Of a stretch of 64,000 bases of DNA, positions 1,417-59,760 are shown piece by piece (position 1 is the first letter of the stretch; each line of letters starts with the position of its first letter). This DNA comes from Candidatus Moraniibacteriota bacterium (lineage in GTDB: Bacteria; Patescibacteriota; Minisyncoccia; Moranbacterales; GCA-2747515), in contig CP175956.1 in assembly GCA_046116545.1 (NCBI GenBank), positions 385,734-449,733 of the forward strand, written 5' to 3'. The notes beneath the pieces are model-generated. The model saw nothing but the letters and a program-made list of their open reading frames with translations. It was not told the origin of the DNA and made no database searches. The position numbers were made by a program, and so were the translations under genes.

Positions 1417-1626
1417 TGAGCCTCTCCCACTTTTAAATTGATAGTATGGTCTTTATACTAAACCAAACTGTTAAAAAACTAATTTTTCTGAAAAATCATT
1501 TCCAGAGTTTTATTTATACAAAAAATATACATAAAACTCTAAAAATCATACATGATAATATATTTACAATAATAATCACTATCAAAAAACCGACTAGATA
1601 ATGTAACACAAAATCAGTAAAAAATC

Positions 1627-1656
1627 AAGCACTAGTTTTATTCAAAACTAGTGCTT
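1627..1656 (-). terminator. intrinsic terminator after PurA-like gene
   Basis: agcactagtttt-attc-aaaactagtgct hairpin abutting the stop codon, T-rich on minus strand downstream. Confidence 0.6.
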
Positions 1657-3091
1657 ATTTTAATGCTTTTTGGTACATCCTACAAATCTTATCTGTAGCA
1701 CATGGACCGACCGACACAATACCTATAAGTGTATTTAGCTCATGTTCTATAAATTGAACATATTGTTGTGCTGAGGGTGGCAATTCATCATAACTTCGTA
1801 TATGCGAAATTTTTTCATACCATCCTATGTGTTGTGTCATTATCGGAATACATTGATTTAACACATGCGTACGATAACGACTCATTTCTCTCGATACATT
1901 TTCATTCTTTTTGATATCATCGATAACTACTCGTTCACCAATATAATGATATTCAAAAAGTTGATTGAAAAATTCACCAACCTCACCCTGATATTCATAT
2001 GATGTACACACATCAATGACATCCATACCAGAAAGTCGATCGAGATTTGTTAAGGAAATATAGTCAAGATTACCTGTACATGCGATTGCATACTTCGTAG
2101 CTACAAGATCAAGCCATCCTACACGGAAATTACCTTGCCATTTTCCCGTACCGTTATGCATATCTGGAATCAATTGACCCAGCTCATAACTTTCTGTTAC
2201 AAATGGTCCAGCGCCATGTCGTGTCATATATGCACGCATAACTCCAACTCGTACAACATCCGCATCACACTCTTCCAGTAATAAATCTGCATTGTAACTA
2301 GTTGTCTGAGAATGCGTGATGTGTGGATAAAAACCATACCCTTCATCCAACAAGACTCCTTGCGAGCCTTCAAACACAAGTGGCCCGACACAATGATTAA
2401 AGAAATCATTCGCTGACATTATTTGCACAATGTCATTTGTTGCAAAATGATAAAATTGTTCACAGATGTCTTCTACATAACCACGCTGCGTTAATTGTGC
2501 AAATAATATTTGCACTTGTTCATTATTTGAATACTGCGCCATAACCTGTTCAGCAAAATCAATCTTGAAATCTCTGAGAAAACATAACTTTTTCAAAGAT
2601 ATTTGTTTATCTGCAAGGTCTCCGATGCGTAATACTTGCTCACCAAATATAACTCCATCAGAAAATGTTTCTCCAACTCCCATGCCACAACTTCCGAGTC
2701 GTTCATCACCACGTATACATTCACGCATACGATTTATAATTTTGTGAAATGGTGTAGTGACCAAACATTTTGAATCAATTGTTATATTTCGTAAACTATC
2801 ATATTGCAGTTTCCCCTGTAATATGCCCAATTCATTTATGAGTGCAACTGGATCAACTACCATATAACGAGACAAGAAAGTTTGAATCTGCTTACTAAGT
2901 GAAGCTGCTCCAATTTGTGCAAAGCAATGGTGTGTACCATCACTCAATAAAATATTATGCGCAGCCTGCGCACCTCCACTAAATCTACAAATTGCAGTTG
3001 CTCTTACATATTGAGCTAGATAATCAACCGTTGTTCCCTTGCCCTCATCGCCAAATCCAAGTCCAACTACAACATATACGTTTTGTGTCAT
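1655..3091 (-). CDS. adenylosuccinate synthetase (PurA) family ligase, divergent
   Basis: GDEGKGT P-loop-like motif near N-term, SGGAQAAHN (cf GGHNAGHT), FEGSQGVLLD..YPHITHSQTT (cf FEGAQGTLLD..YPYVTSSNTT), GAGPF, GWLDLV, LTNLD, VSVGPC blocks all collinear with PurA; but the PurA Arg-rich Asp/IMP loop (TGRRRRTGW) is replaced by GKWQGNFRVGW. Confidence 0.7.
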   Translation of the reverse strand: MTQNVYVVVGLGFGDEGKGTTVDYLAQYVRATAICRFSGGAQAAHNILLSDGTHHCFAQIGAASLSKQIQTFLSRYMVVDPVALINELGILQGKLQYDSLRNITIDSKCLVTTPFHKIINRMRECIRGDERLGSCGMGVGETFSDGVIFGEQVLRIGDLADKQISLKKLCFLRDFKIDFAEQVMAQYSNNEQVQILFAQLTQRGYVEDICEQFYHFATNDIVQIMSANDFFNHCVGPLVFEGSQGVLLDEGYGFYPHITHSQTTSYNADLLLEECDADVVRVGVMRAYMTRHGAGPFVTESYELGQLIPDMHNGTGKWQGNFRVGWLDLVATKYAIACTGNLDYISLTNLDRLSGMDVIDVCTSYEYQGEVGEFFNQLFEYHYIGERVVIDDIKKNENVSREMSRYRTHVLNQCIPIMTQHIGWYEKISHIRSYDELPPSAQQYVQFIEHELNTLIGIVSVGPCATDKICRMYQKALK

Positions 3092-4009
3092 TTATGCATT
3101 CACCTCCCTTGCGATAAAACGTAAAAATTGTTTGTATACATCAATTGCCTTATTAAATGCTGTTTCAGAAAAACACAAGCTATCACTCAGCATAATTGTC
3201 CTATATCCAAATGAATACATCAGATACAAGTCAGATAGGTCTCCAATAGAAACATCTCCACTAGATACAAATGATGTCAGTATACGAGACGCAACAATTG
3301 CATTTGAATCTTTTGCAATAATCATTTGCAACGCATCAAGTATATTCCATTTATTTGAACCAATATTGATGTATAAATCATCACGTGCAGCCATAAGACC
3401 AGTCTTTTGAACTGCGTCAATGTTTTGTACAAATTGCAATCCTGCACATGACTCAATTTTTGCAATTACTTGTGCATCTTTATCGCGAGCATGCAAAACA
3501 TCAATATCACATTGATTTTGAACAAATGACAACATGTAGTCATGTAATCCTAACTCCTTAGCTACTTCTATATACTCACAATCCTCATCAGTAAAAAATC
3601 CTTTTATACACAGATTATTTCCAATGATATTCACTGCTTGACCCGCACCAACAGCATGCTGTGGTGGTGGATCTACAAAAATTTTTATACCATTGATTTC
3701 ACGAATTTCAGATTTACTTCCATCACGAAATACAATAGTTGCAGGTAGGTCAACACTAACTTCATGATTGAGCTCAATGTCTCCGTAAGTTGGTTCTGCC
3801 CACTTTACAATACGTAATTGTCGACATTTCAAATCAACCCATAGCTTCTTTTCACCCAAACATTCGATTATACGCTCCAATGTATTTTTTGGAGTATATG
3901 GTGTACGTACACCAGTATTAAATCGCACAGCATTTACTTGCGTATTCATAACTATCTTGTACATTTGCGTAACATGTGGTGACGGAATTGTTGCTATTAA
4001 TTTCATCAT
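3092..4009 (-). CDS. pyruvate-kinase-like TIM-barrel protein (A-domain only, no B/C domains)
   Basis: N-term KLIATIPSP...VNAVRFNTG resembles PK (K)IVCTIGP...MNVARLNFSHG; AKIESCAGLQFVQNIDAVQKTGLMAARDDLYINIG matches PK (S)KIEN.EGV.N.DEI...DGIMVARGDLGVEIP; only 305 aa. Confidence 0.55.
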   Translation of the reverse strand: MMKLIATIPSPHVTQMYKIVMNTQVNAVRFNTGVRTPYTPKNTLERIIECLGEKKLWVDLKCRQLRIVKWAEPTYGDIELNHEVSVDLPATIVFRDGSKSEIREINGIKIFVDPPPQHAVGAGQAVNIIGNNLCIKGFFTDEDCEYIEVAKELGLHDYMLSFVQNQCDIDVLHARDKDAQVIAKIESCAGLQFVQNIDAVQKTGLMAARDDLYINIGSNKWNILDALQMIIAKDSNAIVASRILTSFVSSGDVSIGDLSDLYLMYSFGYRTIMLSDSLCFSETAFNKAIDVYKQFLRFIAREVNA

Positions 4010-4091: not shown

Positions 4092-5627
4092 TTACAGACG
4101 ACTTGTTTTGTTCTTGCGTCTCTTACCAGAGTTTCTTGCAGGTAAATTACCTGTATCAACTTTCGCAATTGCTGTTGTACTTGCCAGACTATCCAGCGCA
4201 CCCCGAGCATCACTTTGACGAATCTGTGTCTGACCACGCCCTGCCATATCGACAATATAATCATCAATATCAGTTCCTTCAGAAATTGCTAACGCACCCA
4301 TCATTACATCCACAACTGCGCGAGGATCATCAATGATAAGAATGTTTTCCTCTGGAATAACTGACGCCCACTGCGCTTTGATGACTTGATCATCATAACC
4401 AGAATACATACCCACTTCCAACGGACGCTCGTTTGGATCAAAATCAAACGTACCTACAACCACGTCACTTCCTGTCGGAGGAGTACCACTTCCGCGTCCA
4501 ACTGTTCCTTGGCCAATCGTGTCAGTAAAAGTCTGAATTTTACCATGCATTTCTACTTCAACAGTAAAATCTATGGGAAACTGACGATAGCTATTATCAT
4601 CATGTACAGAAAAATTTCGCATAAAAACAGTATATTTACCTTTTGGTGCACTGCCTCGTTCCCACCTGACATTTTCTACTGGTTTACGTGTCTCACGTCC
4701 ACCAGCATTACGATCAACATCCAGTTCACCTCGTCCATTACGAGATACTTTATTATCATATGCGATGTGTTCTGCTACACCGCCTGCGCCAACATCTGGA
4801 TCAACAATGACATGTAAATCCAAATCATCATATGTATTCCACATCCCTGTTGCCCGAAAGTCAATATCTTCATATTGTCCACCAGCTTCATCAAGACGCT
4901 TTTTGATTTCTGCATCAATATCATCCTTTCTTTCTTCCCACGTTTTTTGTGGATAGACAAAGAAAACATGATATTTTTCTTGCAATTCGCGGAAAATCTG
5001 TTCTGTCGGAATGTCAGATGGAACATCATCACCAATATAGGTTTTGATTTGATCCTTGGAAATATTAGAATAAAATCCTTCATCGCCTAGAAAAAAAAGA
5101 TATCCTTTTTTACCACGCTTCCAACAATCAAGCTCCGTCTTTCTGGCGAGGTAATACGCCATGAGTTCATATGACTCTTGACCAGTTCCTCCACCACCTT
5201 CTTCCAACCAGATTTTGCCCAAGTGTTCATCCAAGACATTATCAGCATCAAACTGTGCTACCTGAATTGGTGCCTTATCACCACTTGTCGCATCACCAAC
5301 AGCCGCAAAGCAGATCTCAGGATCATCAACATAGCCCTTCATGATTAGCTGACCGATAAACATCGGTAACTTACCATAAATTACTTTTGCATCATCACCA
5401 CGTGACCTCGTCACATCCATCGCAACAATAATTGGCGTTGCTTGTGGATGTTCCTCGGTATCACGACATTCACGTATCATATCTTTGATATTCAAGTCAT
5501 CATGAACTGCACGACGTGCTGTCGCAGCATCTTCATCTGGACCCTCATATCCTGAATACGTAAAATTATCTCTGCAACTTGAGCGTTGTCGATCACCTAC
5601 ATCACCGTCGTAAAATCCTCCACCCAT
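4092..5627 (-). CDS. von Willebrand factor A (vWA) domain protein with ~300-aa uncharacterised C-terminal region
   Basis: IIVAMDVTRSRG (MIDAS-like DxTxS), ...EEGGGGTGQESYELMAYYLARK, ...YLFFLGDEGFY fits vWA fold signature; GC content visibly higher than flanking genes. Confidence 0.5.
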   Translation of the reverse strand: MGGGFYDGDVGDRQRSSCRDNFTYSGYEGPDEDAATARRAVHDDLNIKDMIRECRDTEEHPQATPIIVAMDVTRSRGDDAKVIYGKLPMFIGQLIMKGYVDDPEICFAAVGDATSGDKAPIQVAQFDADNVLDEHLGKIWLEEGGGGTGQESYELMAYYLARKTELDCWKRGKKGYLFFLGDEGFYSNISKDQIKTYIGDDVPSDIPTEQIFRELQEKYHVFFVYPQKTWEERKDDIDAEIKKRLDEAGGQYEDIDFRATGMWNTYDDLDLHVIVDPDVGAGGVAEHIAYDNKVSRNGRGELDVDRNAGGRETRKPVENVRWERGSAPKGKYTVFMRNFSVHDDNSYRQFPIDFTVEVEMHGKIQTFTDTIGQGTVGRGSGTPPTGSDVVVGTFDFDPNERPLEVGMYSGYDDQVIKAQWASVIPEENILIIDDPRAVVDVMMGALAISEGTDIDDYIVDMAGRGQTQIRQSDARGALDSLASTTAIAKVDTGNLPARNSGKRRKNKTSRL

Positions 5628-5667: not shown

Positions 5668-6762
5668 TTATACACGGAATTCCAAAAACTTTTTTGGACC
5701 CCATAATTCTATAACCAAATCATTTAACATTGCATACATTTCCCATGCATCTTGTGCACGTTGCCGCGGACTCTCAAGTGTAAAAAACTTGAGAAATCTC
5801 TGCAGCGCAGCGTTCACAGATGCAGGCATTGCATTTGTTTTTACATCACCACCAAGCGCAAAGATCATCGTTTTCCCTAGAGAATAGAGATCTGATGCTG
5901 GTAACGGTGACTTTTTCTGCACAACTTCTGGTGCACTAAATTCCTCATTAAATACCTTGAACCCATCATTTGTTCGTGCAGGATTCAGAGCACTATAACA
6001 CCAGTCAATAAGCCATGCGTTATGATCTTTTGGTCGAATCATAATATGTGATGGATCGATGTTTCCATGTACACAACCTTGACTATGTACATAACCAAGC
6101 GCACTAAGCGCACGGTTCATCATCCATACAACATGCTTCTGATCAATACCATATTTCCATCGCGAACTTTCACGAATAGAATATAAGTCATGACCATCAA
6201 TGTACTCCATTATCGTTCCAAGTTGTCCATCACTGGTCTTGAATCGATCCAAAAGTACTGGAAGATGTTTCAATTGACTTGCAGGATTATCTTTGAACAA
6301 TCGCAAAATTTTAATCTCATTTTGCATCAAATCATTATCTGCACTATCATCAACAACTTTTACAACAACTGGACCAGTAAATGCATCTCCAATCGCCTGA
6401 CCACCATACACAACACTTAAATCACCTTCTGCAAGCGTCTTTGTGACAGTATACGTATTTTTACGAGTTTGAATCGTAAATGATTCACTATCTGAAATAT
6501 CAGTTTGTTCTTCAGATAATGTGTCTCCGTATATGCCTTGCGTCAATTTTCGAGTTGCCTTTACATAATACTCAGTCAACTTTACAAAAGCATCATTTGC
6601 CTGCACATTACCATTATTTCTATCTGGATGTACAACTTTTGATAACTGCCTAAAAGTACTTTTAACAAAAGCTGCATTTGCTTCAATGCCAAAGATATCC
6701 TCAGGATATTGTGCACATTCTATTCGCTCACATACAACTGTAAGTTCTCCCATTGCTTTCAC
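5668..6762 (-). CDS. J-domain (DnaJ-like, HPD motif) fused to protein-kinase-like domain, probable pseudokinase
   Basis: N-term ...FRQLSKVVHPDRNNGNVQANDAFVKLTEYY (HPD J-domain); kinase-like VVVKVV / EIKILRLF / catalytic-loop position VHGNIDPSHIMI (HRDLKPEN with D->N and K->D) / LIDWCYS (DFG-like) / SAPEV (APE). Confidence 0.55.
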   Translation of the reverse strand: MKAMGELTVVCERIECAQYPEDIFGIEANAAFVKSTFRQLSKVVHPDRNNGNVQANDAFVKLTEYYVKATRKLTQGIYGDTLSEEQTDISDSESFTIQTRKNTYTVTKTLAEGDLSVVYGGQAIGDAFTGPVVVKVVDDSADNDLMQNEIKILRLFKDNPASQLKHLPVLLDRFKTSDGQLGTIMEYIDGHDLYSIRESSRWKYGIDQKHVVWMMNRALSALGYVHSQGCVHGNIDPSHIMIRPKDHNAWLIDWCYSALNPARTNDGFKVFNEEFSAPEVVQKKSPLPASDLYSLGKTMIFALGGDVKTNAMPASVNAALQRFLKFFTLESPRQRAQDAWEMYAMLNDLVIELWGPKKFLEFRV

Positions 6763-6771
6763 CTCCTCTTA

Positions 6772-7410
6772 TTAATTGTACTCATTGTGCACAATAATAC
6801 ATGCATCATCTTTTTGTAATTTGATTTTTTCTTCATACAATGACACAACATCTGACTCAAAACGATCTCGCACAACTTGTGCTGATACACCATACTTTTG
6901 TGTATCACGCATAATTCTCCGTTGTAAAAGTGTTTGTACACTAACATCTATAAAAATATCAATTATGTCACATGAGAGTGTTTGTAAAATAGTAGTGACA
7001 AACAATCCCTCAGCAATAATAATATTTGCTGGTTGACACACATTTTTATGATGTGTAATTCGTTTGTTCAAGTAAATATCATATTGCGGAATGCATACAG
7101 CATTTCCACATAACAATAAACCAATATCTGAAATAAATTCTCGTGTATGATACGAATCAATACTATCAAATATACACCGACCATTTTGGTCTCGTGGCAA
7201 TGTGTTATCATCAACATCCTTAAAATAAGAATCTAATGCTATAACAATTGACATTATATCGCCTTGCAGTAATGCCTGAGTTAATTGCTGTGAAAAATAA
7301 GTTTTTCCACTACAACTACCCCCGGAAACAGCTACTACGATTGGAGAATGTATATATTGCAAATATTCTACAAGTACATTTACGCACAAACATATATTCT
7401 TGTATTCCAT
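6772..7410 (-). CDS. uridine kinase / nicotinamide riboside kinase family P-loop nucleoside kinase
   Basis: VAVSGGSCSGKT Walker A; ALDSYFKD, IIIAEGLF, RRIMRDTQKYGVS..V..RFESDV.SLYEEKI collinear with Udk (IPEDCYYKD, VIILEGIL, RRIKRD..RGRS..V...Y). Confidence 0.7.
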   Translation of the reverse strand: MEYKNICLCVNVLVEYLQYIHSPIVVAVSGGSCSGKTYFSQQLTQALLQGDIMSIVIALDSYFKDVDDNTLPRDQNGRCIFDSIDSYHTREFISDIGLLLCGNAVCIPQYDIYLNKRITHHKNVCQPANIIIAEGLFVTTILQTLSCDIIDIFIDVSVQTLLQRRIMRDTQKYGVSAQVVRDRFESDVVSLYEEKIKLQKDDACIIVHNEYN

Positions 7411-7538: not shown

Positions 7539-7539
7539 G

Positions 7540-7570
7540 TCTAAGAAGATAAATTTTTATCTTCTTAGAC
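7540..7570 (-). terminator. hairpin/terminator downstream of NMNAT-like gene
   Basis: tctaagaagataaa-ttt-ttatcttcttaga perfect palindrome. Confidence 0.5.
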
Positions 7571-7574
7571 TGAT

Positions 7575-8192
7575 TTATGTTTTATATAAATTATTAGAAA
7601 CGATATAGCATGATACATCATCATTTACAAGATGTCTAGTAGTTTCTCCTGCTGCAATGTACTCTCGTGCCATGGTACCCGAACCAAAAATATTAGAAAT
7701 CCCAACAAGTCGTGATTGTGGTGGCAGATCATTACGAGACACCTGATATCCAGGTCGCCGTAATACTAAAAAATTAAGGTCCTGCCAAATTTCACATCCC
7801 CTGCTCCATGTACGGTGAATTTCTGATGCACCATCTTGTCCACCTTCGATTATGTCACCGCCCACGATGTGCCAAATTTCCCCATCAGAAAATTCGTCTT
7901 CATACCTCTTTTGCAAAAGATACGTCGGAGTATACGTGCAACAATCAATGTCATGATAGTCGATTATGACATCATCCATATCTGATAATGCAATCGCTAA
8001 CATATTTTTGCGATGCACTGGTGTAATGACATTTGCCGATTGTTTATCTGGACGTATCCCACATGGCACAACGATCAATACGTCAAAAAACCGTTTCATA
8101 TATTCAATAATTTGAACATGATGTATACATGGCGGATTAAAACTACCCCCAAAAATACCAACTACTTTTTTCATAATTACACCTCTAATCAT
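7575..8192 (-). CDS. nicotinamide/nicotinate mononucleotide adenylyltransferase-like nucleotidyltransferase (eukaryote-type GSFNP motif)
   Basis: VGIFGGSFNPPCIHHVQII = (H/T)xGH-class nucleotidyltransferase motif in the GSFNP(P) form of NMNATs; size 205 aa. Confidence 0.6.
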   Translation of the reverse strand: MIRGVIMKKVVGIFGGSFNPPCIHHVQIIEYMKRFFDVLIVVPCGIRPDKQSANVITPVHRKNMLAIALSDMDDVIIDYHDIDCCTYTPTYLLQKRYEDEFSDGEIWHIVGGDIIEGGQDGASEIHRTWSRGCEIWQDLNFLVLRRPGYQVSRNDLPPQSRLVGISNIFGSGTMAREYIAAGETTRHLVNDDVSCYIVSNNLYKT

Positions 8193-8240
8193 AAAACTTT
8201 AAAAGAACTCATCATCATCCCAAAAATATATTAACCTTAG

Positions 8241-8298
8241 GATGGAAATAATATATCCAAACATAAATTTTGATACACAATTTCTATAATTCAATTTT
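8241..8298. repeat. duplicated intergenic element in NAD cluster (copy 2)
   Basis: gatggaaataatatatccaaacataaattttgatacacaatttctataattcaatttt. Confidence 0.5.
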
Positions 8299-8390
8299 GT
8301 GCTATACCAAGCACATACATGTTTGTTAAAAATATTTATTTATCCAGTGTGCAAAAATTTATTTTGCACACTGGATTTTTGACAACGATA

Positions 8391-9077
8391 TTATTGTGCG
8401 ATGATTTGTGCAGCAGACTGTACAATTATAGCTCCAGCGTCTTGCATTTCATCAATGGCTTTTTTTGTACCATCTGGATCTATACCACGACAAGCACCTA
8501 AATTTAGAATTACTTTAAATCCAGCACGTAATAATTGAAGCACTGTTAGCTTCACACAAAAGTCAGTAGCCAACCCGCCAACAATCACCGTATCCATACC
8601 CTGCACTTGCATCCACTCAATAACACCAGTAGATATTTTATCTCCAAGATCATGATAACATGCCCCATACGGATGCATGTCTCTTTCAACTCCCTTGTAA
8701 ATCAAGAAATCATACTCTTCCGGTTTTGGCAGGCCTGCAATCAACTCAAAACCAAATGTGCCAGGTACACCATGCATAAACCACTTTAAATCAATATTTG
8801 CTAAATCTGCAAAGCATCCTTCTACAGGCTGAGCCAATTCCTTCAATTCCTCTGTTTTCCAATAAGCATTGACCGGATGAGCATCCTTAGATACAACTCG
8901 TTTACTTGCTTTTTTTGCACCATCATTGAGTTCATCAACAATATCCTCACCACCTTTAACAGCTAATTCATCTGGACACCTTGGCGTAAAGCAGTACATC
9001 GCGTCCACATCAAATGCTACTGTTATTGCCTTTTTCACATATACATTATCCATAATCACTACCCCTCCTTTATACAT
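8391..9077 (-). CDS. pncA: nicotinamidase/pyrazinamidase (PncA), isochorismatase-family cysteine hydrolase
   Basis: TVIVGGLATDFCVKLTVLQLLRAGFKV with the GLATD(Y/F)CV catalytic Cys motif; N-term Asp and Lys-bearing blocks typical of the family. Confidence 0.65.
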   Translation of the reverse strand: MYKGGVVIMDNVYVKKAITVAFDVDAMYCFTPRCPDELAVKGGEDIVDELNDGAKKASKRVVSKDAHPVNAYWKTEELKELAQPVEGCFADLANIDLKWFMHGVPGTFGFELIAGLPKPEEYDFLIYKGVERDMHPYGACYHDLGDKISTGVIEWMQVQGMDTVIVGGLATDFCVKLTVLQLLRAGFKVILNLGACRGIDPDGTKKAIDEMQDAGAIIVQSAAQIIAQ

Positions 9078-9326
9078 TTTAGATTTATGATTTTATACAT
9101 AGGCTATTTACAGATCCACTTGTTATCGTTTATTTCAAAGAACAAAACCTTATCGTTACATTAAGTTTTAACTAATTTGCTGTCCAACTATCTTATATGA
9201 TTTTTATAATTGACAGACTTTAGTTATTACTTAGTGTATGTCTTACACTTCTAAATTCACTATAGCACCCCATCCAAATCGTGTCAAGTCTACACTAAGT
9301 ATTTATGGATAACTTTTACAATATAT

Positions 9327-9367
9327 AAAAACCACTTTAAGATAATTATCTTAAAGTGGTTTTTTCT
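9327..9367. terminator. bidirectional intrinsic terminator
   Basis: aaaaaccactttaagataattatcttaaagtggttttttc : 14-bp perfect stem flanked by A- and T-tracts. Confidence 0.7.
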
Positions 9368-9372
9368 ATTTG

Positions 9373-10125
9373 TTAATATGCTTTTAACTGTAAAATAGAT
9401 CTCTTGAGATTTAACCTTGCCTGATTTTCATATCTATCCTTGAAATAATCTGTAAGAAAGATACTCGATCTATTATTCAAAAAGTCGGCTAAAATTTTAG
9501 ACCTTCCCTCTCGAAATGCTAACTCCTCCACCCATGCATATTCTTTTCTAATATTACTTTCATATTCGTCAAAAATATCTACTGGCTGTCCGAGTATAAG
9601 CAAATCAATATCAAGACCAGTCATCGTATCAGTGCTATGCGGAGTATTTTTGTGATCATAATAAATAATTGCTTGAGCAACAGCATCAACTATTTCACTT
9701 ACTACACCATACTTTGTCAAAAACTCCCTAGCATATTCACCACTCATCACATCATTATACCCCAGGGCATACTCTCTTGCTTCGCAATTCACCTCATCAC
9801 TCCTACTAAAATCCATCACACTATCATGCAAAACCAATTGCCACAACACATTTATTGGATTTTTAACTTTGTCTACAACATGCTCAAAAAAACTATGTAT
9901 ACAAAATTCGATGTGACCATCAAATGTATGATAATATCGTTTTGACTTATTATATTTTACAACAAGTTCCTGAAATCCTTGTTGATAATCACCAGTGCAT
10001 GCGCTATATCGCCACAAAGTTTCAAATTTTCTTTCTAAACAGTTCATCCCTAATCCTCCGCTTTTTGTAGAGACACGATTAATAGTATCTCTACAATTTT
10101 CATTATAAATGACTGCAAAAAGCAA
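9373..10125 (-). CDS. HD-domain metal-dependent phosphohydrolase (predicted)
   Basis: H..H...HD...D spacing: YHTFDGHIEFCIHSF ... LVLHDSVMD; no closer family assignment possible by eye. Confidence 0.4.
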   Translation of the reverse strand: MLFAVIYNENCRDTINRVSTKSGGLGMNCLERKFETLWRYSACTGDYQQGFQELVVKYNKSKRYYHTFDGHIEFCIHSFFEHVVDKVKNPINVLWQLVLHDSVMDFSRSDEVNCEAREYALGYNDVMSGEYAREFLTKYGVVSEIVDAVAQAIIYYDHKNTPHSTDTMTGLDIDLLILGQPVDIFDEYESNIRKEYAWVEELAFREGRSKILADFLNNRSSIFLTDYFKDRYENQARLNLKRSILQLKAY

Positions 10126-11137
10126 CGGCCTGTTTACGCAATTCGCCTATGTGACAATCAGTGTTAACATACACAAAATTTAATATCTCGCACTTACAAA
10201 TATCCCGTGATTCTTGTAAGTTTGGTATCGCATTAGTCAAAACTTTGTGCTTAGGGGTTCCACGTTTATCCAAACGTTCATGACTTACATCATCACTACA
10301 TCCAACATAAATAATCTTCCCACCTAAATATTTATACACTTCCTTCCCTGCTCTAAGTCCATACGGAACTTCCAAAAAAATATTACTGCCAGCAGGAACT
10401 TGTCGCAAATATTCTCGCACTGCTCCAAACCATACATCTACTATAACCTTAGTTACTTCCGAATCATTCTTTGAAACAAGTGCAACCAAATCTGCGTCCT
10501 GACCAAACTTATCCAGAAGTAATGGTCGTACACGCTTTGAACATTCATCAGTATCAATCCAAATATTTTTGGTATCAACTTCAGAAACCATCTTCAAAAA
10601 AGTACTCTTACCTGATCCAGGGCAACCTACAACCATAAATATATTTCTGGCCTGTAGCTCTCTTTCTAAAAGAATTGAGACGATGCCCGGCGCTACATAT
10701 TTCGCCAACATTTGAAAATCAAGATCACCAATAGCACGCCTCGCACGTGTAGCAGAAACAGAGACGAACTCCTCCTTAGCCCACACATAAAATATTTTAT
10801 CAATGCCAAACATCTCTTTGTTAATCTTCATGACATGTCTCTCATGCTCCATATCATCCTCGCACCTAATACCACGAATCATGACAACATCAGGAAAATC
10901 AAATCTACCTTTACTTTCTTCAAATGTAATCACATCTACATTGCTCGGTAAATTATAATACTTCCACATTGCTACACATTCTTTTTCACTAAACCAGCGT
11001 GTCTTATCCTTCTTCTCATTAGTTGAACAGACAATTGTTACTTTTGGTAAAATTCTACTAGCCTCTTTCACAATTGCAAAGTGTCCATACGTCGGTGGTG
11101 AAAAAACTCCTGGAAAAATAAATTGTCCATTACTCAT
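10103..11137 (-). CDS. bifunctional cytidylyltransferase-like nucleotidyltransferase (CoaD/NMNAT class) + P-loop kinase (NadR- or CoA-synthase-like architecture)
   Basis: N-term FPGVFSPPTYGHFAIV...VTIVCSTNEKKD...ISATRARRAIGDLD collinear with PPAT/CoaD (GTFDPITNGH...NPSKKPLF...SS(T/S)L(I/V)RE..GGD); C-term FMVVGCPGSGKSTFLK Walker A kinase domain. Confidence 0.55.
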   Translation of the reverse strand: MSNGQFIFPGVFSPPTYGHFAIVKEASRILPKVTIVCSTNEKKDKTRWFSEKECVAMWKYYNLPSNVDVITFEESKGRFDFPDVVMIRGIRCEDDMEHERHVMKINKEMFGIDKIFYVWAKEEFVSVSATRARRAIGDLDFQMLAKYVAPGIVSILLERELQARNIFMVVGCPGSGKSTFLKMVSEVDTKNIWIDTDECSKRVRPLLLDKFGQDADLVALVSKNDSEVTKVIVDVWFGAVREYLRQVPAGSNIFLEVPYGLRAGKEVYKYLGGKIIYVGCSDDVSHERLDKRGTPKHKVLTNAIPNLQESRDICKCEILNFVYVNTDCHIGELRKQAVAFCSHL

Positions 11138-11180
11138 ACTTTACCCTCCTGCTATATTTACTATTATGATTATTTAAACT

Positions 11181-11217
11181 CCTTCGCATTGTCATCCTGA
11201 ATTTATTTCAGGATCTA
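11181..11217. repeat. TGTCAT-family palindromic unit upstream of frameshifted TrmB gene
   Basis: ccttcgcattgtcatcctgaatttatttcaggatc. Confidence 0.4.
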
Positions 11218-11449
11218 AGTCTTACTAGAGCTTTGTGATATTACAAGATTCTGTAATAAGTTCAGAATGAGATCTTCTATTGTTAAATTACTATAAATAG
11301 CTTATACTAATTAACAAGATAAATCGTCAGTGACAACTAAAAATATTATCAGTTCCTTGTTTTTAAGTTAAATAAAGAACTATCACATCAATAATTGTCG
11401 ATTTATTTCGACATCACTACTGATTTATATAAAAAATTTATCAATTATT

Positions 11450-12200
11450 ATGTCACAAAAAATTAAAAAGTATTTACGAGAATTAGGCTTTAGTAAAAAT
11501 GAACAAAAAATCTATATAGCACTTACTGAGCTTGGTGAAGCTAGTGCTTCCATAATTGCAAAAAAAAGCAGATACACCACGCACCACAGCAATAAGCATC
11601 CTAGAAAAACTTGAGAAAGAAAAATATATATCTATCCAACGTTACCGTGGTCGAAACACATTTTGGATTGAATCACCTCAAATGATCAAAAAATCGCTTG
11701 AACAAAAAGTAGTAATAGCTGATGAATTAGATATACTTTTAACAGATCTCTATCGATCAGAGTCTGATTTTCCATATGCAAAAATATATGATACTAAATC
11801 TAGCATCAAATCATTCATCGAAACCCTAATATCAAAAACTGAAAATGGGACTACTATCTATACTATTGATAATCCAAAGTCAGGAAATTACCGTAAGATC
11901 CTATCGAAGAAATTTTATTACGATATGATTGCTATGAAAAATAAAAATAATATTACAACACAAACACTTATCCCAGAAGGTACCTACAAAACAATAAATC
12001 CTCAAAAAATTATTGACAGAAATATTGAAATTCATGAATTACCTAAAAATGTAGAATTTAAAGCATCTCTCTGGATTATTGATAACACACTAGTTCTATT
12101 TTCAGGAAAATATCCTTTTATCGTTGCCGTTAATCATAAGATTATAACAAGTAGTATTAAATCATTTTTCGACTATTTTTGGATGATTGCCAAAAATTAA
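11450..12200 (+). CDS. TrmB-family transcriptional regulator, interrupted by +1 frameshift in A8 run at 11560-11567 (paralog of 52906..53649)
   Basis: ATG at 11450 gives MSQKIKKYLRELGFSKNEQKIYIALTELGEASASIIAKK then stop; ORF-track frame 11556..12200 continues ADTPRTTAISILEKLEKE...; removing one A fuses them to SIIAKKADTPRTTAISILEKL, which aligns with the intact paralog YRVAQKSGVKKPTTYVLLDEL. Confidence 0.55.
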
Positions 12201-12238
12201 ACAAGGAAACCACTCATATATCGAGTGGTTTTTTCAGA

Positions 12239-12982
12239 TTATTTTGTAAATATCAATTCTCTTTTTTTAAATTTATATAATTTTGCTGGCCTATGCTTCA
12301 TGCCCTCTTTTACTTTCTTTGTTTCTGCCAGAATATTAAGTGATAGAATCTTTTTTCGAAAATTTCTTTTATCAACTATTGTGCCTAAAATAATCTCATA
12401 AACTTGTTGCATTTCAGTTAAAGTAAATGTTTTTGGTAACAGCCCATATACAATATTTGAATATTCAATCTTTGCCCTCAATCGTTCCACGCCAAACACA
12501 ATCATTTCTTTATGGTCAAATGCCATCTGTGGTAATTCTTCTACATCCACCCAATCAATGTCAGAGTAATAATCCATTGTTTTAAGATCAAGTTTATCAC
12601 TATTAACCAATGCAAAATATGCAACAGATATCATTCGTCCACGAATATCTCGCTTAAGGCTACTAAAACTATAGAGTTGCTCCATGTAAACACCTTTAAT
12701 TCCTGCTTTTTTCTTAAGCACATTTTTTGCTGCTTGATCCAGTGTCTCATCAATCTGTACAATTCCACCTGGCAACGCCCATTTATTCTCATATTTACCA
12801 CTACCAATTTCAATAAGTAAAGTCATTAATTTACCCTCTCGAATCGTAAAAATTAAAGTATCTACAGCAACAGCTGGTCCAATAATTAATTCATCTTTTC
12901 GTTTTGTATTTTGAATTTTCATAAATAAGATATAAAGTGTTATTAATACACTAACAATAACATATTTTTCCAATAAAGTCAA
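12239..12982 (-). CDS. nrtR: NrtR-like regulator: Nudix hydrolase domain + C-terminal winged-helix (NAD-metabolism repressor family)
   Basis: Nudix box region WALPGGIVQIDETLDQAAKNVLKKKAGI; ~90-aa C-terminal extension typical of NrtR wHTH; location at edge of pncA/NMNAT cluster. Confidence 0.55.
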   Translation of the reverse strand: MTLLEKYVIVSVLITLYILFMKIQNTKRKDELIIGPAVAVDTLIFTIREGKLMTLLIEIGSGKYENKWALPGGIVQIDETLDQAAKNVLKKKAGIKGVYMEQLYSFSSLKRDIRGRMISVAYFALVNSDKLDLKTMDYYSDIDWVDVEELPQMAFDHKEMIVFGVERLRAKIEYSNIVYGLLPKTFTLTEMQQVYEIILGTIVDKRNFRKKILSLNILAETKKVKEGMKHRPAKLYKFKKRELIFTK

Positions 12983-14681: not shown

Positions 14682-16310
14682 CTATAATTGTCCTCCACAA
14701 TTTGCACAAAACTTTGCACCTGCTATATTATCAGTGCCACAATTTGCACATTTTACAGGAATTATTTCATCTGAATTAGAGCCTTTATTTGCACCAAAAG
14801 CATTTTGATCTGTTGACTCATTATTTTTTTGTATCGATTGTGAATTTTGCACAGCTTCTTGTTGTATTGGCATTTCAATAGGTTGTGTTTTATTTTTCCT
14901 TTTTAAAGTTTTAATTACTATAAGTATTATTACAATAAGTATAATAATACCGAGTACACCAACAACGCCCAGTACCATAAAGCTAAATCCACCAGCTGTT
15001 GTGTCTTTTGCTGAACTTGCAATATTTACGTCATTTATTTTTACAGATGCCTTTTCTCCAGTTATACTATCATCTTGCATATCAGACCTTGCCTCACCAA
15101 TACCAGCTTCCGTATTTGCTTTTATTGTTGATGCTTTCTCTATAGGAGCGCCTTCTCCCTCTAAAGCAATTATAATATCGTACTGAGTTTTATCTTTTTT
15201 CGTTTTTTCAGACTCATATGCTGGACACCAAGAATAATTTCCACACGATTCTCTCCAATCATTCCCGATTGAAATATAATATTCACCTGTTTCATCTGCA
15301 ATAAATGCGGCTTTATAAGAAACTGGCTCTGTTGATCCTGACCGTAACCCTAGTGTTACTGGGGAAAATGCTCCAGAACCACATGAATCAGCGACCAACT
15401 CACTAACAACTGATTGATATTTATCATAAATTTTTACAACAGGCAACATACACATACTAGTTGCGTTATCTTCACTCATTGCCTGTTCTCTTTTCATATT
15501 TAATGCCGCTATAATATTTTGCCCCTTATATGCCTTAATTTTATAAAATTTAGTCTCACCGGCACGAATATCACCACCATAAGCACCCTCTTTAATAGTT
15601 GGTGCATTTACAAAGCCAGTACCTGCTGCAACACCGCCTGCATTTGCAAATCCTTCAAAAGCTCTTTGTGAAAAAAATGTCATACTTGCCACTAATTCTC
15701 CAGCATTCTTTGCACTTCTGTACTCTCCGCCTGTAGCCTGAGCAACACATTTAAGTTGTTCTTCTGCAATTCCACTAACATCAAATCCAACAGTGTTTAC
15801 AACTATATCAAATCCTTCGTCACGCATTTTTTTAACTGTTGCACAAGGATCTCCACCACATGTTTCCTCACCATCAGAAACAAGTATTACCATTTTGCCA
15901 AATTCTGGATTTTTATTAAAATCAGATTTTGTTTGTTGTAAAGAATAATCAATCGGAGTCCAACCGCCTGGATTAAGAGAATTAATTTTTGAAATTAATT
16001 GACTTTTATTTATTTTACTAATTGGATAAATTAATTCTGAATCCTGACAATCTTTATTTGCACTCGTTGATCTATGTCCATATGCACGAAATCCCACAAA
16101 TGCATTTTCTGGCATTTCATTTATAACTGTTGTCAGAGCTTCTTTTGCTACATCCATTTTTGATTTTCCTCCATCTATGATTCCTGCCATACTGCCTGAT
16201 ACATCCAAGATAATTTCGACATCATTACCTTTTATATCTACTGCCTGGACTTGTTGTACAAAAACCATACTGAATATGGCTAGACTGAGCATTATATAAA
16301 TCTTGTTCAT
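14682..16310 (-). CDS. exported vWA-domain protein with C-terminal TM helix and cytoplasmic double zinc-ribbon
   Basis: signal peptide MNKIYIMLSLAIFSMVFVQQVQA; ILDVSGSMAG (MIDAS DxSxS), GGWTP, ILVSDGEE; TM FSFMVLGVVGVLGIIILIVIILIV; tail CANCGTDNIAGAKFCANCGGQL. Confidence 0.6.
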   Translation of the reverse strand: MNKIYIMLSLAIFSMVFVQQVQAVDIKGNDVEIILDVSGSMAGIIDGGKSKMDVAKEALTTVINEMPENAFVGFRAYGHRSTSANKDCQDSELIYPISKINKSQLISKINSLNPGGWTPIDYSLQQTKSDFNKNPEFGKMVILVSDGEETCGGDPCATVKKMRDEGFDIVVNTVGFDVSGIAEEQLKCVAQATGGEYRSAKNAGELVASMTFFSQRAFEGFANAGGVAAGTGFVNAPTIKEGAYGGDIRAGETKFYKIKAYKGQNIIAALNMKREQAMSEDNATSMCMLPVVKIYDKYQSVVSELVADSCGSGAFSPVTLGLRSGSTEPVSYKAAFIADETGEYYISIGNDWRESCGNYSWCPAYESEKTKKDKTQYDIIIALEGEGAPIEKASTIKANTEAGIGEARSDMQDDSITGEKASVKINDVNIASSAKDTTAGGFSFMVLGVVGVLGIIILIVIILIVIKTLKRKNKTQPIEMPIQQEAVQNSQSIQKNNESTDQNAFGANKGSNSDEIIPVKCANCGTDNIAGAKFCANCGGQL

Positions 16311-17683: not shown

Positions 17684-18814
17684 TTATTCCTTATTTTGTT
17701 TCATCTTATACCAAACAAATACACCTAATGCTACACATACTAGTATTAGCATTATTGCAAACATTGGTCTATAAAAAATCCAAGCAATTGCGATTGTCAA
17801 TAAAGAAATTTGTACTGCTGCTATGAATGACATAATACCAATTCCAAAACCTATGATATTACCTATAAATGGCACAACATCTCCAATAACTTCCAAAGGT
17901 TTCAAAATAATTTTTGTACCAATCATTATCATAAAAAACCCAACAAATCGTAATATCCATGTCATTAGCTTATTGCTGCTTTTTGCTGAATCAAACATCT
18001 GCTGAGCTGTTTGATCTCGAGAAGTCAAAAATTCTAATGTCTGTCCTTTACTGGTCACAAAAGGTTTAAAGCTATCTCCCTTTTGTTGAGAAATCATACT
18101 AACTACTTCTGGACTTACAGTTTGATAACTGATTTTCAAATCACCTATTTTTGGATTATTCTGATCTTCTCCGATATATATTATTCCACCAATTAATTTA
18201 ATACTGTCATCTTCTGAAACCTCTTTTTTCATTTCTACAACTGGAAAGTTTTTATAGTTCCCAATTTTATTTATCAAAGACTCTGATAATTTAAACTTTC
18301 CCAACTGCACATTACCTGCACTTAAAGTATCACTTTCATACATCATGATTCCAGGATTATCATGACCTTGATCATGAAAGCCTCCACTATCAATTAAACT
18401 ACTATTCCAATCTTTATTGTAAGTATAAGTTGTTGTTGTCTCTGTGCTCCCTCCCATTTTTTTTGTACTAGAAGAATCAGTGTTTTCTTCCCATTGATAC
18501 ATCTCCACTAAACGTTTTAATTTTATTCCTTCAAATACAACACCAAACTGACTATCTTCTAATACATCCTTAGTTTCCAACTTTCCATTTAAATGCACAA
18601 GCTTTCCATCTTGCCCAGGATCAATTTGCTCTATTGAAGCATTTTCAACCATGCTTTGACCTTCATCTAATGCCTTTTTTGTATGAACTGCTCGTCCCTC
18701 ATTCCAAAACAAAAGCACTATAGCAGCAATTAATAAAAGAACACCAAAAAGAATCCCTTTAATAGAACCACCTAATCGACTACCCCAGGATTCTGACGTT
18801 GTAACTGTAGACAT
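17684..18814 (-). CDS. TMEM43/DUF1625-like membrane protein (N-terminal TM, large loop, C-terminal TM bundle)
   Basis: N-term TM ILFGVLLLIAAIVLLFW, conserved-looking EMYQWEE motif, C-terminal multi-TM region; assignment from memory of the family, moderate. Confidence 0.4.
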   Translation of the reverse strand: MSTVTTSESWGSRLGGSIKGILFGVLLLIAAIVLLFWNEGRAVHTKKALDEGQSMVENASIEQIDPGQDGKLVHLNGKLETKDVLEDSQFGVVFEGIKLKRLVEMYQWEENTDSSSTKKMGGSTETTTTYTYNKDWNSSLIDSGGFHDQGHDNPGIMMYESDTLSAGNVQLGKFKLSESLINKIGNYKNFPVVEMKKEVSEDDSIKLIGGIIYIGEDQNNPKIGDLKISYQTVSPEVVSMISQQKGDSFKPFVTSKGQTLEFLTSRDQTAQQMFDSAKSSNKLMTWILRFVGFFMIMIGTKIILKPLEVIGDVVPFIGNIIGFGIGIMSFIAAVQISLLTIAIAWIFYRPMFAIMLILVCVALGVFVWYKMKQNKE

Positions 18815-59300: not shown

Positions 59301-59760
59301 CTACTTTTGCAGTAGAAACAGCACCATCGGCAATTTTGACAGAAACAACTGCTCCATCCATTATCTTGCCAGATACTATAGCACCGTCTTCGATCTTTAC
59401 ACTTGTAATAGATCCATCTTCAAGTTTGGTTGCAGTCAAAACTCCGTCTTTAAGATCATCCGCTTGGATTTGACCATCAAGATCAAGTTTTTTGTATGCA
59501 ATTTTTGCATTACTTGAGATATCTTCGTTCTTAATTCGTTTTGCAAATGTAATCATTTGCGCAACAGTACCATCCTTAAGTACTACCGGCACCATACTCC
59601 TAACTATAGCTTCTCTAGTTTTTGCATTTGTTTGCAAAAAACTAATACCCACCACTAAAACAGTAACCATCGCAATGATTGTTACTTTTTGTAGAGATGA
59701 TACTCCACGCTTCACATTTATGAAACGAGCTTCTCCTCTTTTATCGTTTTTTAAATTCAT
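56353..59760 (-). CDS. 1135-aa membrane-anchored surface protein built from ~14-residue phage-tail-fibre-type tandem repeats
   Basis: N-terminal TM (VTIIAMVTVLVVGISFL); dozens of repeats of the form (K/T)(I/L)ADG(A/S)VT(T/S)xKIxDGAIT; tail-fibre-like blocks LTGNADTVTNGVYT(I/T); plus-strand ORFs 57449..58249 and 58946..59473 are antisense shadows. Confidence 0.7.
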   Translation of the reverse strand: MNLKNDKRGEARFINVKRGVSSLQKVTIIAMVTVLVVGISFLQTNAKTREAIVRSMVPVVLKDGTVAQMITFAKRIKNEDISSNAKIAYKKLDLDGQIQADDLKDGVLTATKLEDGSITSVKIEDGAIVSGKIMDGAVVSVKIADGAVSTAKVENGAITNIKLADGSITTGKITDGAITGVKLADDAVMTAKIENGAVTNGKLADGAVTTVKLADGSVTTVKIADGAVTNVKIGDGEISGVKLAADITINSTGTVTALSFTDGTTVLTGGNITTTGDITAGNINGNLTGNADTVTNGVYTIGDQIIDGVKTFTSDVVANITGNAETVTDGVYTTGSYNDPSWLTGVAASKIVGQITGAQVADGTLTGDKLASDGSMVKSIVAGPNTTVTNNVDGSWTIEANVGTGTISDVVAGDGLTGGGTTATVTLNIGAGTGITVGTDDIGIADGGVGSIQLADSAVIVSKLADGSVITSKIADGAVTAGKLANGTIVETNLADGSVSTAKIQDNAITEIKLADGAVVTSKVEDLAITTVKLADGSVTAAKILDATITGGKLVDGAITTIKLADNSVTTGKIVDGTILVGDLADGIITTVKLADGSVTTIKIVDGAVTSGKIEDGTIVTIDLADDAVTTAKVLNNAITEIKLADGSVTTAKIVDTAVTTSKLADGSVITSKIADASIVEGKIADSAITPAKLADNSVTTAKIVDSAVTTAKIADAAITNVKLASDAVTTDKVVDNTITGDDLANDITIATTSTITSPNFIGDLTGNADTVTNGLYTTTNFDGDVFGQYATLAIRDNAVTTAKIADLAVSSAKLADTAVTNVKLASDAVTTDKILDGTITNDDLADDIALTTTGTVTATEITDGTLSMVGGELVSTSNTLNIRNAGVGKTNLDVDGVITGDALGTSGSRWSTIYADSLNFLTGLTNADNTGGPDSVINLGTAGADAAQIRIGHNGADTAIFDADWEIRATGDAMFEGITIASNADVDSLSVTTTSTFGDTLTVSSGGLNITGGLDMNGGNITNIGTATLSGLLTANGGIDMGDTDIDDVDDLDADNITVSNDVTIANDLSVDGDADFSSAHTIIDHGTSAPAGCSTGEIFVDTNGSTVTVGGNSSEVYLFVCTGSDNWTPVVQD
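57560..59480 (-). repeat. in-frame tandem 42-nt (14-aa) coding repeats within the tail-fibre-repeat protein gene (two blocks, approx.)
   Basis: protein-level periodicity KIxDGAVTxxKLADGSVTT...; nucleotide copies divergent. Confidence 0.55.

Follow-up and report, generated by a model that had tools for sequence, protein, structure and literature searches.

The gene at positions 1655..3091 on the minus strand of a 64,000-nucleotide stretch of the Candidatus Moraniibacteriota bacterium contig CP175956.1 (hereafter the window, meaning that whole stretch) is publicly annotated as adenylosuccinate synthetase (AdSS). On comparison with its relatives in bacteria and phages, the gene was judged very probably not to be a housekeeping AdSS. 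Taken as a whole, the explanation considered probable is that the encoded ligase is a non-canonical AdSS, which would act with a von Willebrand factor A (vWA)-like partner protein as the enzymatic part of a conserved mobile module. The core of this module is a vWA-domain protein followed by the PurA-like enzyme; a J-domain pseudokinase is usually encoded ahead of them, and an NrtR-like regulator of the ADP-ribose type often before that. In the ligase, which is built on the PurA fold, the GTP site is intact, and the catalytic Asp, His, and Lys are kept along with Gln224, which contacts the base. The former pockets for the 5'-phosphate of inosine monophosphate (IMP) and for aspartate are lined by another conserved set of residues, namely, Q42, C135, F149, H292, W318, Q319, and F322.

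1655..3091, minus strand: PurA-like ligase, member of the vWA-associated PurA-like clade, 478 aa; single long open reading frame (ORF) with ATG start and TAA stop

The family assignment of the ligase was clear, but its place within the family was not that of a canonical PurA. The protein scored 276.9 bits against PF00709 (Pfam cut-off 27) and fell below every NCBIfam PurA equivalog cut-off (NF002223, 239 vs 402; TIGR00184, 217.3 vs 395.55; NF010355, 175 vs 445). Against the NCBIfam PurZ model NF038379, it reached 37.7 bits, the cut-off being 300. The AlphaFold2 (AF2) model had a predicted local distance difference test score (pLDDT) of 90.7 and a predicted template modelling (TM) score (pTM) of 0.91. 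Its best Foldseek matches were ligated bacterial, plant, and mammalian AdSS structures (TM 0.73–0.85), while PurZ/DgsS and PurZ0 were much weaker structural matches (TM 0.45–0.55).

A genome scan, with one genome per species and the clade alignment as query, yielded 80 loci, namely, 46 clade members and 34 canonical PurAs, and motif class split these loci into two groups with zero overlap. The median sequence identity was 42% within the clade, 52% within canonical PurA, and 30% between the groups (maximum 36.6%). The motifs that separate the two groups are given below.

Motif 1: GS[CT]GxG in the clade, GTTGRG in canonical PurA
Motif 2: TRHGxGP in the clade, TRVGxGP in canonical PurA
Motif 3: N-x4-[WY]QG-xFR-xG in the clade, TTGRxRRxGW in canonical PurA
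Motif 4: GGxQA[AG]H in the clade, GG[HA]NAGH in canonical PurA

All four clade motifs, in the form common to genomic and viral members (GGxQA[AG]H, GS[CT]GxG, TRHGxGP, and N-x4-[WYF]QG-x2-R-xG), are carried by the window protein. Thousands of relatives were found in a large protein database; the best 120 were 37–74% identical to the window protein, and the non-canonical motifs were seen in all 60 of these that were inspected. Since every clade-invariant residue is present in the window protein, it looks functional. In a published tree (PMC12884076), 767 PF00709 proteins were divided into the group of E. coli PurA (251), that of PurZ (151), and approximately 365 "other PurA homologs"; the last set plausibly includes the present clade.

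The ligand-contact positions were tabulated for 172 clade sequences and 34 canonical PurAs, with the residue roles taken from H. pylori AdSS structures (PMC11276676). The corresponding sites in the window gene are as follows, each change being written from the canonical residue to that of the ligase.

3035..3058, minus strand: P-loop GFGDEGKG, in which D15 is the catalytic Asp13 and K18 is Lys16; invariant in 171/172 clade members and 34/34 canonical PurAs
2954..2977, minus strand: GGAQAAHN for GGHNAGHT (N38 to Q42, G40 to A44, H41 kept as H45, T42 to N46)
2669..2695, minus strand: GSCGMGVGE for GTTGRGIGP (T128 to S134, T129 to C135, R131 to M137, P135 to E141)
2645..2647, minus strand: F149 at the position of Arg143', the IMP 5'-phosphate ligand from the other subunit
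2357..2374, minus strand: FEGSQG
2204..2224, minus strand: TRHGAGP, in which H292 replaces Val273
2114..2158, minus strand: rebuilt aspartate loop HNGTGKWQGNFRVGW (W318, Q319, F322, R323)
2039..2050, minus strand: TNLD, the equivalent of TKLD, with the guanine-specificity Asp333 kept as D351

The first-pass annotation of this DNA had listed GDEGKG, FEGSQG, GAGPF, and LTNLD as conserved PurA blocks, and all of these motifs were located in the minus-strand gene. Its mapping of GGHNAGHT to GGAQAAHN and of the Arg loop to GKWQGNF-RVGW agreed with the HMMER alignment of the ligase to the E. coli and B. anthracis PurA structures. Comparison of the clade with canonical PurAs gave the same division, in which the catalytic and GTP-binding core is kept and the residues for the IMP phosphate and aspartate are replaced; T128, T129, R131, K140, R143', and V273 also differ, in addition to the positions pointed out at first.

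In the case of the kept residues, G12, D13, K16, G17, H41, Q224, T239, D333, S414, and G416 were retained in at least 161 of the 172 clade members, and G127 and R306 were kept in both the clade and canonical PurA. Together, the residues common to both groups make up the GTP site and supply the catalytic base and acid as well as Gln224, the contact to the base. The ligase thus has the PurA P-loop with the equivalents of Asp13, Lys16, and His41 (D15, K18, and H45). It also has the determinants of guanine specificity, as the Asp333 equivalent, which is D in 169/172 clade members, is accompanied by S460 and G462 (S414 and G416).

The replaced residues were equally consistent over the clade. The position of N38 was Q in 169/172 clade members and N in 34/34 canonical PurAs, with H41 invariant in both groups. 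T128 was replaced by S in 167 and T129 by C in 163 of the 172 sequences, while T128, T129, R131, and P135 were invariant in canonical PurA. The clade consensus also shows M/K/L/V for R131, E/Q for P135, and A/S/G for K140, the last being G146 in the window protein. The second PurA signature, G-I-[GR]-P-x-Y-x2-K-x2-R, which we take to be the PROSITE pattern, is absent from the ligase; the region reads GVGETFSDGVIF, with P135 changed to E, K140 to G, and R143 to F, all three being invariant in the canonical set. At the Arg143' position, Arg was never found among the 172 clade members (L/Y/H/F instead) and was present in 34/34 canonical PurAs, and at the Val273 position, H was found in 172/172 clade members and V in 34/34 canonical PurAs. 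In H. pylori AdSS, the T129 equivalent binds the IMP phosphate, and Arg135' has the role of Arg143' (PMC11276676). The four IMP 5'-phosphate ligands N38, T129, T239, and R143' accordingly correspond to Q42, C135, T259, and F149 in the ligase, and Thr239 alone is kept.

The aspartate loop is changed throughout. The canonical GATTGRRRRTGW was aligned by HMMER with GKWQGNF-RVGW, so that T300 becomes W318, T301 becomes Q319, and R303 becomes N321, and only R306 is kept (R323). The loop proper (E. coli 298–305, G-A/T-T-T-G-R-x-R) is replaced by GKWQGNF with a one-residue deletion. MAFFT failed to align the loop of the clade, which has the form x3-W-Q-G-x-F, with GATTGRxRRxGW of the 34 canonical sequences. 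W318 and Q319 were invariant in alignment A2, and N-x4-[WYF]QG-x2-R-xG was found in most genomic and viral clade members. Since the altered residues are fixed over 172 relatives and absent from 34 canonical PurAs, they constitute a clade signature and not decay or chance. A changed acceptor or amino-acid substrate, as had been suggested from the sequence of this one gene, is what the invariant catalytic and GTP core, the conserved pocket replacements, the separate clade, and the occurrence in phages and actinomycetes together argue for.

The short phage ligases of the clade (approximately 365–416 aa; L007, L008, L009, and many viral loci such as L151–L169) are without TNLD and the C-terminal SxGP region. 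They may use another phosphoryl donor than the long forms of actinomycetes and of bacteria of the Candidate Phyla Radiation (CPR).

Among bacteria, the module was found in CPR members, actinomycetes, and other phyla; among phages, it was found in approximately 200 mycobacteriophages of cluster C and in many contigs of uncultivated phages, up to approximately 440 kb in size. Complete genomes with the clade include those of Actinomadura sp. (NZ_CP041244.1) and Ca. Uabimicrobium amorphum. The cluster C mycobacteriophages encode a "PurA-like" protein that is 39–40% identical to the window protein. Some of the clade-bearing actinomycetes have 9-Mb genomes; actinomycetes with such large genomes generally also have a housekeeping purA. 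The genes of the module in the window are given here, together with the first gene of the operon and the gene lying between the vWA-like partner and the ligase.

3092..4009, minus strand: pyruvate kinase (PK)-like mini TIM barrel, 305 aa; PF00224, 39.8 bits; PK motifs VIAKIE (K-x-E) and ARDDL (ARxDL) kept
4092..5627, minus strand: vWA-like partner, 511 aa, in the same operon; the PK-like gene lies between it and the ligase
5668..6762, minus strand: fusion of a J-domain and a kinase-like domain; Pkinase 64.6 bits, DnaJ 27.2 bits; HPD at residue 45, HGN, DWC
6772..7410, minus strand: uridine-kinase/PRK-family P-loop kinase, first gene of the operon; PF00485, 54.4 bits; uridine kinase models 102 and 90 bits, below cut-off

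In mycobacteriophage Tonenili, the two genes just upstream of the PurA-like gene (product gp104) are homologous to the window neighbours, and all three module proteins are thus homologous. The "serine/threonine kinase" of this phage is 30% identical to the product of 5668-6762, and its 340-aa hypothetical protein is 42% identical to that of 4092-5627. The adjacency of such a hypothetical, vWA-like protein with a PurA-like protein was also seen in Rhizobium T4-like phages, Vibrio phage Va1, and a human-gut phage. Of the 112 loci that could be assessed, 110 had a vWA-like gene upstream in the same orientation, separated by a median of approximately 45 nt, while none of the module partners was found at the 34 canonical purA loci. 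The 52 clade loci from genomes and annotated phages contained an NrtR-like gene in 29, a J-domain kinase-like gene in 33, and a vWA-like gene in 47 cases, followed by the ligase, always on the same strand and in this fixed order. No other family recurred at these 52 loci, and other apparent ones were antisense artefacts of high-GC DNA. The NrtR-like gene heads the operon in 29 loci, all of them from actinomycetes, and is also present in 7 viral loci. The viral set comprised 80 IMG/VR contigs, many of 100–440 kb, with a GC content of 27–70%. The vWA-like gene stood beside the ligase in 75 of these contigs, the five exceptions having less than 1 kb of upstream sequence, and the kinase-like gene was present in 57–59. 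In the PADLOC defence-system scan, the J-domain kinase had only generic kinase matches, and the ligase, vWA-like, and PK-like proteins had none at all. In the searchable literature, the coverage of which is incomplete, neither the module nor the clade nor its NrtR and CPR links were found described.

The vWA-like partner matched no Pfam or NCBIfam family. It matched phrog_2971 and phrog_1735, both of which are without an assigned function, and its AF2 model was assigned by Foldseek to the integrin beta-I/vWA fold. A metal ion-dependent adhesion site (MIDAS) of the type D-x-T-x-S...T...D-E is present as DVTRS...GGGGTGQES...GDE. The window protein consists of an N-terminal MGGGFYDGDV tail, the vWA domain, a YfaP-like beta domain (approximately 237–400), and a C-terminal helical part ending in -RL. 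The partner is more conserved than the enzyme, with 50–88% identity over CPR, Planctomycetota, Riflebacteria, and Schekmanbacteria. An exhaustive HMMER search returned 1,016 clusters (50% identity) at E <= 1e-30, most of which are short forms of 300–350 aa, the phage and actinomycete forms, without the YfaP-like middle domain of the CPR version. The termini are disordered in the AF2 model yet conserved, with M-G-[GSY]-[GS]-x-[WYF]-[SD]-x-D-x-Y at the N-terminus of 107/121 sequences and -R-L at the C-terminus of at least 72/121. In some mycobacteriophages, the vWA-like gene is interrupted by an intein, as recognized by Cys1, a TxxH block, a LAGLIDADG-like motif, and ...SSN followed by Cys+1. 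It is inserted directly ahead of IFIGDE, the invariant MIDAS strand; inteins usually home to functional sites that are conserved. In Mycobacterium phage Yassified gp258 (L170:2321-4102; likewise in matches H48-H53), the intein has 254 aa and the motif WLAGVYDGEG, and the whole ORF is annotated merely as "HNH endonuclease".

In the case of the J-domain kinase-like family, 78 homologues were compared. The beta3 Lys (K72) was present in 76, the alphaC Glu (E91) in 78, and the DFG Asp in 73, while HRD reads H-G-A with the catalytic Asp changed to Ala in 70; the HPD of the J-domain was found in 63. In the window protein, HGN replaces HRD and DWC replaces DFG. The protein is probably a nucleotide-binding pseudokinase or a non-canonical enzyme, and through its J-domain, it could recruit Hsp70. 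At locus L004, an Hsp70-GrpE pair is nearby on the opposite strand, which is maybe a coincidence.

The ligase gene is the last of a five-gene minus-strand unit, the order of which is uridine-kinase/PRK-family kinase, J-domain pseudokinase, vWA-like partner, PK-like barrel, and ligase. Two terminator-like hairpins bracket these genes.

1626..1657, minus strand: terminator-like hairpin with a 14-bp stem followed by a T-run, overlapping the ligase stop codon and marking the operon end
7539..7570, minus strand: terminator-like hairpin, upstream limit of the five-gene unit

Since the hairpins at 7570-7539 and 1657-1626 enclose the five genes, they were taken as the operon limits. Long perfect hairpins stand right after stop codons at 1626-1657, 7539-7570, 8342-8376, 9327-9364, and 12204-12234, several with T-runs on both strands. 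This series looks like bidirectional terminators that would split the adjoining NAD-type gene cluster into short transcription units.

The first-pass annotation had described the ligase gene as adjacent and translationally coupled to the PK-like barrel. This stop/start junction was confirmed: the PK-like gene ends in a TAA (3092-3094) that abuts the ligase ATG (3089-3091), and GGAGG stands 10–14 nt upstream of this ATG, within the end of the PK-like gene. The weight given to this neighbour did not hold, because the conserved partners are instead the vWA-like protein and the J-domain pseudokinase, which had not been connected with the ligase. The PK-like gene joins the module only in CPR, one myxobacterial (Myxococcales) metagenome-assembled genome, and two low-GC viral contigs (L001, L004, L024, L031, L153, and L157). 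Judged from this distribution, the barrel is a lineage-specific accessory insert and not a defining partner. The protein is without the B and C domains of PK. That it might regenerate GTP from phosphoenolpyruvate for the ligase is pure speculation.

Immediately upstream of the five-gene unit, flanking NAD-type genes span 7575..12982 on the minus strand. They are listed below.

7575-8192, minus strand: NadD-like adenylyltransferase (Pfam); best NCBIfam match NadD, below the equivalog cut-off
8391-9077, minus strand: nicotinamidase-like protein (Pfam); best NCBIfam match PncA, below the equivalog cut-off
9373-10125, minus strand: unassigned protein
10103-11137, minus strand: adenylyltransferase with P-loop kinase (Pfam)
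12239-12982, minus strand: NrtR-like Nudix–winged helix-turn-helix regulator (Pfam); best NCBIfam match ADP-ribose-responsive repressor, below the equivalog cut-off

Similar surroundings were found at other loci. The Parcubacteria locus L001 is surrounded by NrtR, NadB, NadA, NadE, and NAD kinase, and its cluster also holds a uridine-kinase/PRK-family gene. L004 has a NadE-NMNAT fusion, the Rhizobium phage loci have a phosphoribosyltransferase and NMNAT/Nudix, and among the viral loci, NrtR-like (7), Nampt (6), and NADAR (4) genes were confirmed by Pfam. Regulators of the NrtR family sense ADP-ribose (PMC2330246, PMC9503650). Table 1 of PMC2330246 contains nrtX-nrtY, unexplained NrtR-regulated genes in Streptomyces, Frankia, Kineococcus, Proteus, and Hahella, and as far as that table describes them, these genes could belong to the present module. 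An inverted-repeat search for NrtR operators in the window cluster yielded only the terminator-like hairpins after stop codons, and no operator is claimed. From the NrtR and NAD-gene context, we infer that the physiological role may be nucleotide homeostasis coupled to the NAD+/ADP-ribose status, which large phages would have co-opted.

With regard to the rest of the window, a phage origin was considered and rejected, as no nucleotide match to phage records was obtained and housekeeping genes are present; the exact ligase protein is also present on a 1.29-Mb Moraniibacteriota contig, which counts against a phage origin as well. No purB and no second purA were found within the 64 kb, and a tRNA scan found none. 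Nearly all genes up to approximately 46 kb are on the minus strand, a strong bias accompanied by a GC skew of approximately -0.2 to -0.3, which falls to approximately 0 at 44–56 kb, where the gene orientation turns mixed. A second vWA protein, unrelated to the partner (VWA_2 with a C-terminal zinc ribbon; 14682-16310), is followed by a TMEM43-family protein (17684-18814) and a DUF2207 membrane protein (18890-20560), all on the minus strand. Two very large ORFs, also on the minus strand, are present at 38016-44306 (2096 aa) and 56353-59760 (1135 aa).

As for the reaction, the ligase is inferred to be GTP-dependent and to use a nucleophile other than aspartate. In the proposed mechanism, the gamma-phosphate of GTP would be transferred to the lactam oxygen of a hypoxanthine-type (6-oxopurine) nucleotide, the 5' end of which is probably not a free monophosphate, and the activated carbon would then be attacked by an amine other than aspartate. 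The nucleophile is a matter of guesswork. The invariant N-terminal glycine tail of the vWA partner is the first candidate, itself a doubtful one. Ammonia, which would give a direct amination without PurB, and another small amine are somewhat more doubtful, to the same degree. Lower still, and again level with each other, stand aspartate after all and the absence of any second step, in which case the protein would be a kinase or GTPase only. If the glycine tail is followed through, its MG(G/S)(G/S)x(W/Y)... sequence would expose Gly after removal of Met, and the ligase would join the GTP-activated hypoxanthine-type nucleotide to the N-terminal Gly alpha-amine of the partner, with an adduct of approximately 330 Da if derived from IMP. 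The conjugate would serve as a switch in an ADP-ribose/NAD+-responsive module. This complete version is a long shot.

Several points weigh against the explanation as a non-canonical, vWA-associated ligase. The nucleophile candidates are guesses from pocket composition and partner anatomy. T239, G127, and Q224 are kept, which leaves room for a normal IMP-like substrate, the N38 change from Asn to Gln is conservative, and one loop Arg (R323) survives as a possible carboxylate ligand. The rebuilt loop has low confidence in the AF2 model (pLDDT 63–77). The vWA neighbour is missing at L003, L017, and L050, although upstream sequence is available for these three clade members. In the case of the NAD link, which comes from gene context, every NAD-type neighbour in the window scores below the equivalog cut-offs, and such neighbours are found in a minority of the phage loci.

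Two other explanations are unlikely to an equal degree. According to the first, the ligase is a divergent but genuine AdSS (IMP, L-aspartate, and GTP as substrates) that serves as the AMP-branch enzyme of a reduced CPR genome, its neighbours being regulators or unrelated. The strong PF00709 match and PurA fold, the retention of the catalytic residues, Q224, T239, and the guanine site, the surviving loop arginine R323, the public annotation, and the lack of another purA within the window all speak for it. However, R303, R305, T300, T301, R143', T129, and N38 are replaced clade-wide, the scores are far under the equivalog cut-offs, and the vWA linkage was seen at 0/34 canonical purA loci. The clade is moreover present in approximately 200 mycobacteriophages, many large phages, and actinomycetes with 9-Mb genomes, for which a normal purA is general knowledge. 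According to the second, ammonia is the amine donor, and the ligase acts as an aminase that turns an inosine-type nucleotide (IMP, inosine triphosphate, or a hypoxanthine dinucleotide) directly into the adenine form without PurB. Such an activity would be useful to phages and reduced genomes, for example, in repairing adenine-nucleotide pools. It would suit the change of the Arg-rich aspartate pocket to aromatic or neutral residues and an invariant His, and the loss of the 5'-phosphate ligands is in keeping with a substrate that is not a simple monophosphate. CTP synthase, from the same P-loop superfamily, uses ammonia after O-phosphorylation. Against the aminase, no glutaminase or ammonia-channel partner is present, and the near-obligate vWA partner and the J-domain pseudokinase are left unexplained.

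A regulatory GTPase or pseudo-ligase is less credible again. Here, the PurA scaffold would serve as a nucleotide-driven switch, partnered by the vWA adaptor, the J-domain protein, and Hsp70, as in vWA-MoxR pairs, and no ligation product would be formed. The Asp13 base, the His41 acid, and Gln224 are invariant over 172 sequences and needless for a mere switch, and the new invariant residues H292, W318, Q319, and C135 at the former substrate sites suggest a new ligand rather than none. The typical vWA adaptor fold with MIDAS, the J-domain kinase-like partner without a catalytic Asp, and the alteration of both PurA substrate pockets speak for the switch. The identity with PurZ or PurZ0, which would make N6-succino-2-amino-deoxyadenylate for 2-aminoadenine (Z) DNA, is suggested by the label "2-aminooxy adenylosuccinate synthetase" on phrog_1211 and on the RefSeq cluster C mycobacteriophage homologues; it is in practice refuted by the kept Asp13 (171/172 clade members; Ser in 100% of phage PurZ/PurZ0, PMC12884076), the low PurZ score (37.7 vs 300 bits), a structural likeness far below that to PurA (TM 0.45–0.55), the loss of the aspartate loop in spite of the use of aspartate by PurZ, and the position of the gene on a bacterial chromosome amid housekeeping genes. 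Among the Pfam-scanned neighbours, none of the Z-genome genes (DatZ/MazZ/DpoZ or DutZ/DmtZ) was found, the recurrent ones being vWA, J-domain kinase, and NrtR. The label itself (e.g., NC_031080.1 157315-158643; phrog_1211) looks like a garbled PurZ label. It is misleading because the phage homologues keep Asp13 and are without the aspartate loop.

The explanation as a vWA-associated, non-canonical ligase has consequences for annotation. PF00709 proteins are routinely named adenylosuccinate synthetase and, in phages, are sometimes named as PurZ-like; the present clade is a third large one, set apart by its active-site signature and almost always paired with a vWA gene. If the inference is true, the ligase gene may have been wrongly taken for the IMP-to-AMP step in metabolic reconstructions of CPR and other reduced genomes, and the phage copies would be mislabelled. 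The chemistry would be a new GTP-dependent ligation, maybe tied to the NAD+/ADP-ribose axis of phage–host conflict or to protein modification. A protein–nucleotide conjugate, if real, would represent a new kind of protein modification, made by a purine-biosynthesis fold. The module is small and occurs in tractable systems such as the cluster C phages of M. smegmatis.

Compared with known systems, the module shares features with four. Small mobile gene sets of large phages are known as NARP1 (Adps and Namat), NARP2 (Nampt and Nmnat), and NARP3 (PnuC and NadR-like), and their neighbours are NAD-salvage genes and NrtR-type regulators. Similarly, the present module in some loci adjoins Nampt, NMNAT/Nudix, NADAR, or NrtR, but the NARP components are not homologous to the PurA-like, vWA-like, or J-domain kinase proteins, and neither the NARP1/2 and NARP3 papers nor the Aravind survey of viral NAD-ADP-ribose systems mention a PurA-like/vWA/J-kinase module. 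MoxR-vWA systems (CbbQ/CbbO, NorQ/NorD, and RavA/ViaA) are pairs of a vWA protein and an NTPase. As in those pairs, the gene of a MIDAS-bearing vWA adaptor stands immediately beside that of a P-loop NTPase, with which it presumably acts, and unlike in those pairs, the NTPase is a PurA-type ligase with intact catalytic residues and not an AAA+ remodeller. To our knowledge, the MG(G/S)(G/S)x(W/Y) and -RL termini of the partner have no counterpart in MoxR-vWA systems.

PurZ and PurZ0 resemble the ligase as phage-recruited PurA paralogues with changed substrate specificity, and the phage relatives of the ligase bear a PurZ-type product name in RefSeq and PHROGs. PurZ, however, has Ser for Asp13, still uses aspartate, has approximately 340 aa, and occurs together with DatZ/MazZ/DpoZ or DutZ/DmtZ (PMC12884076), whereas the ligase keeps Asp13, has lost the aspartate loop, has 478 aa, and is accompanied by the vWA protein and the J-domain pseudokinase. 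PurA itself (EC 6.3.4.4; PF00709; E. coli 1ADE/1CG0, H. pylori 6ZXQ) is the nearest known enzyme. The fold (TM of approximately 0.8), the P-loop, Asp13, His41, Lys16, Gln224, Thr239, and Asp333/Ser414 are common to both, as is the long bacterial architecture (approximately 430–480 aa), which differs from the short archaeal or PurZ form. Unlike PurA, the ligase has N38, T129, R143', and the aspartate loop (T300, T301, R303, and R305) replaced and has the new invariant residues C135, H292, W318, and Q319. It also has a vWA neighbour in 110/112 loci, compared with 0/34 for purA.

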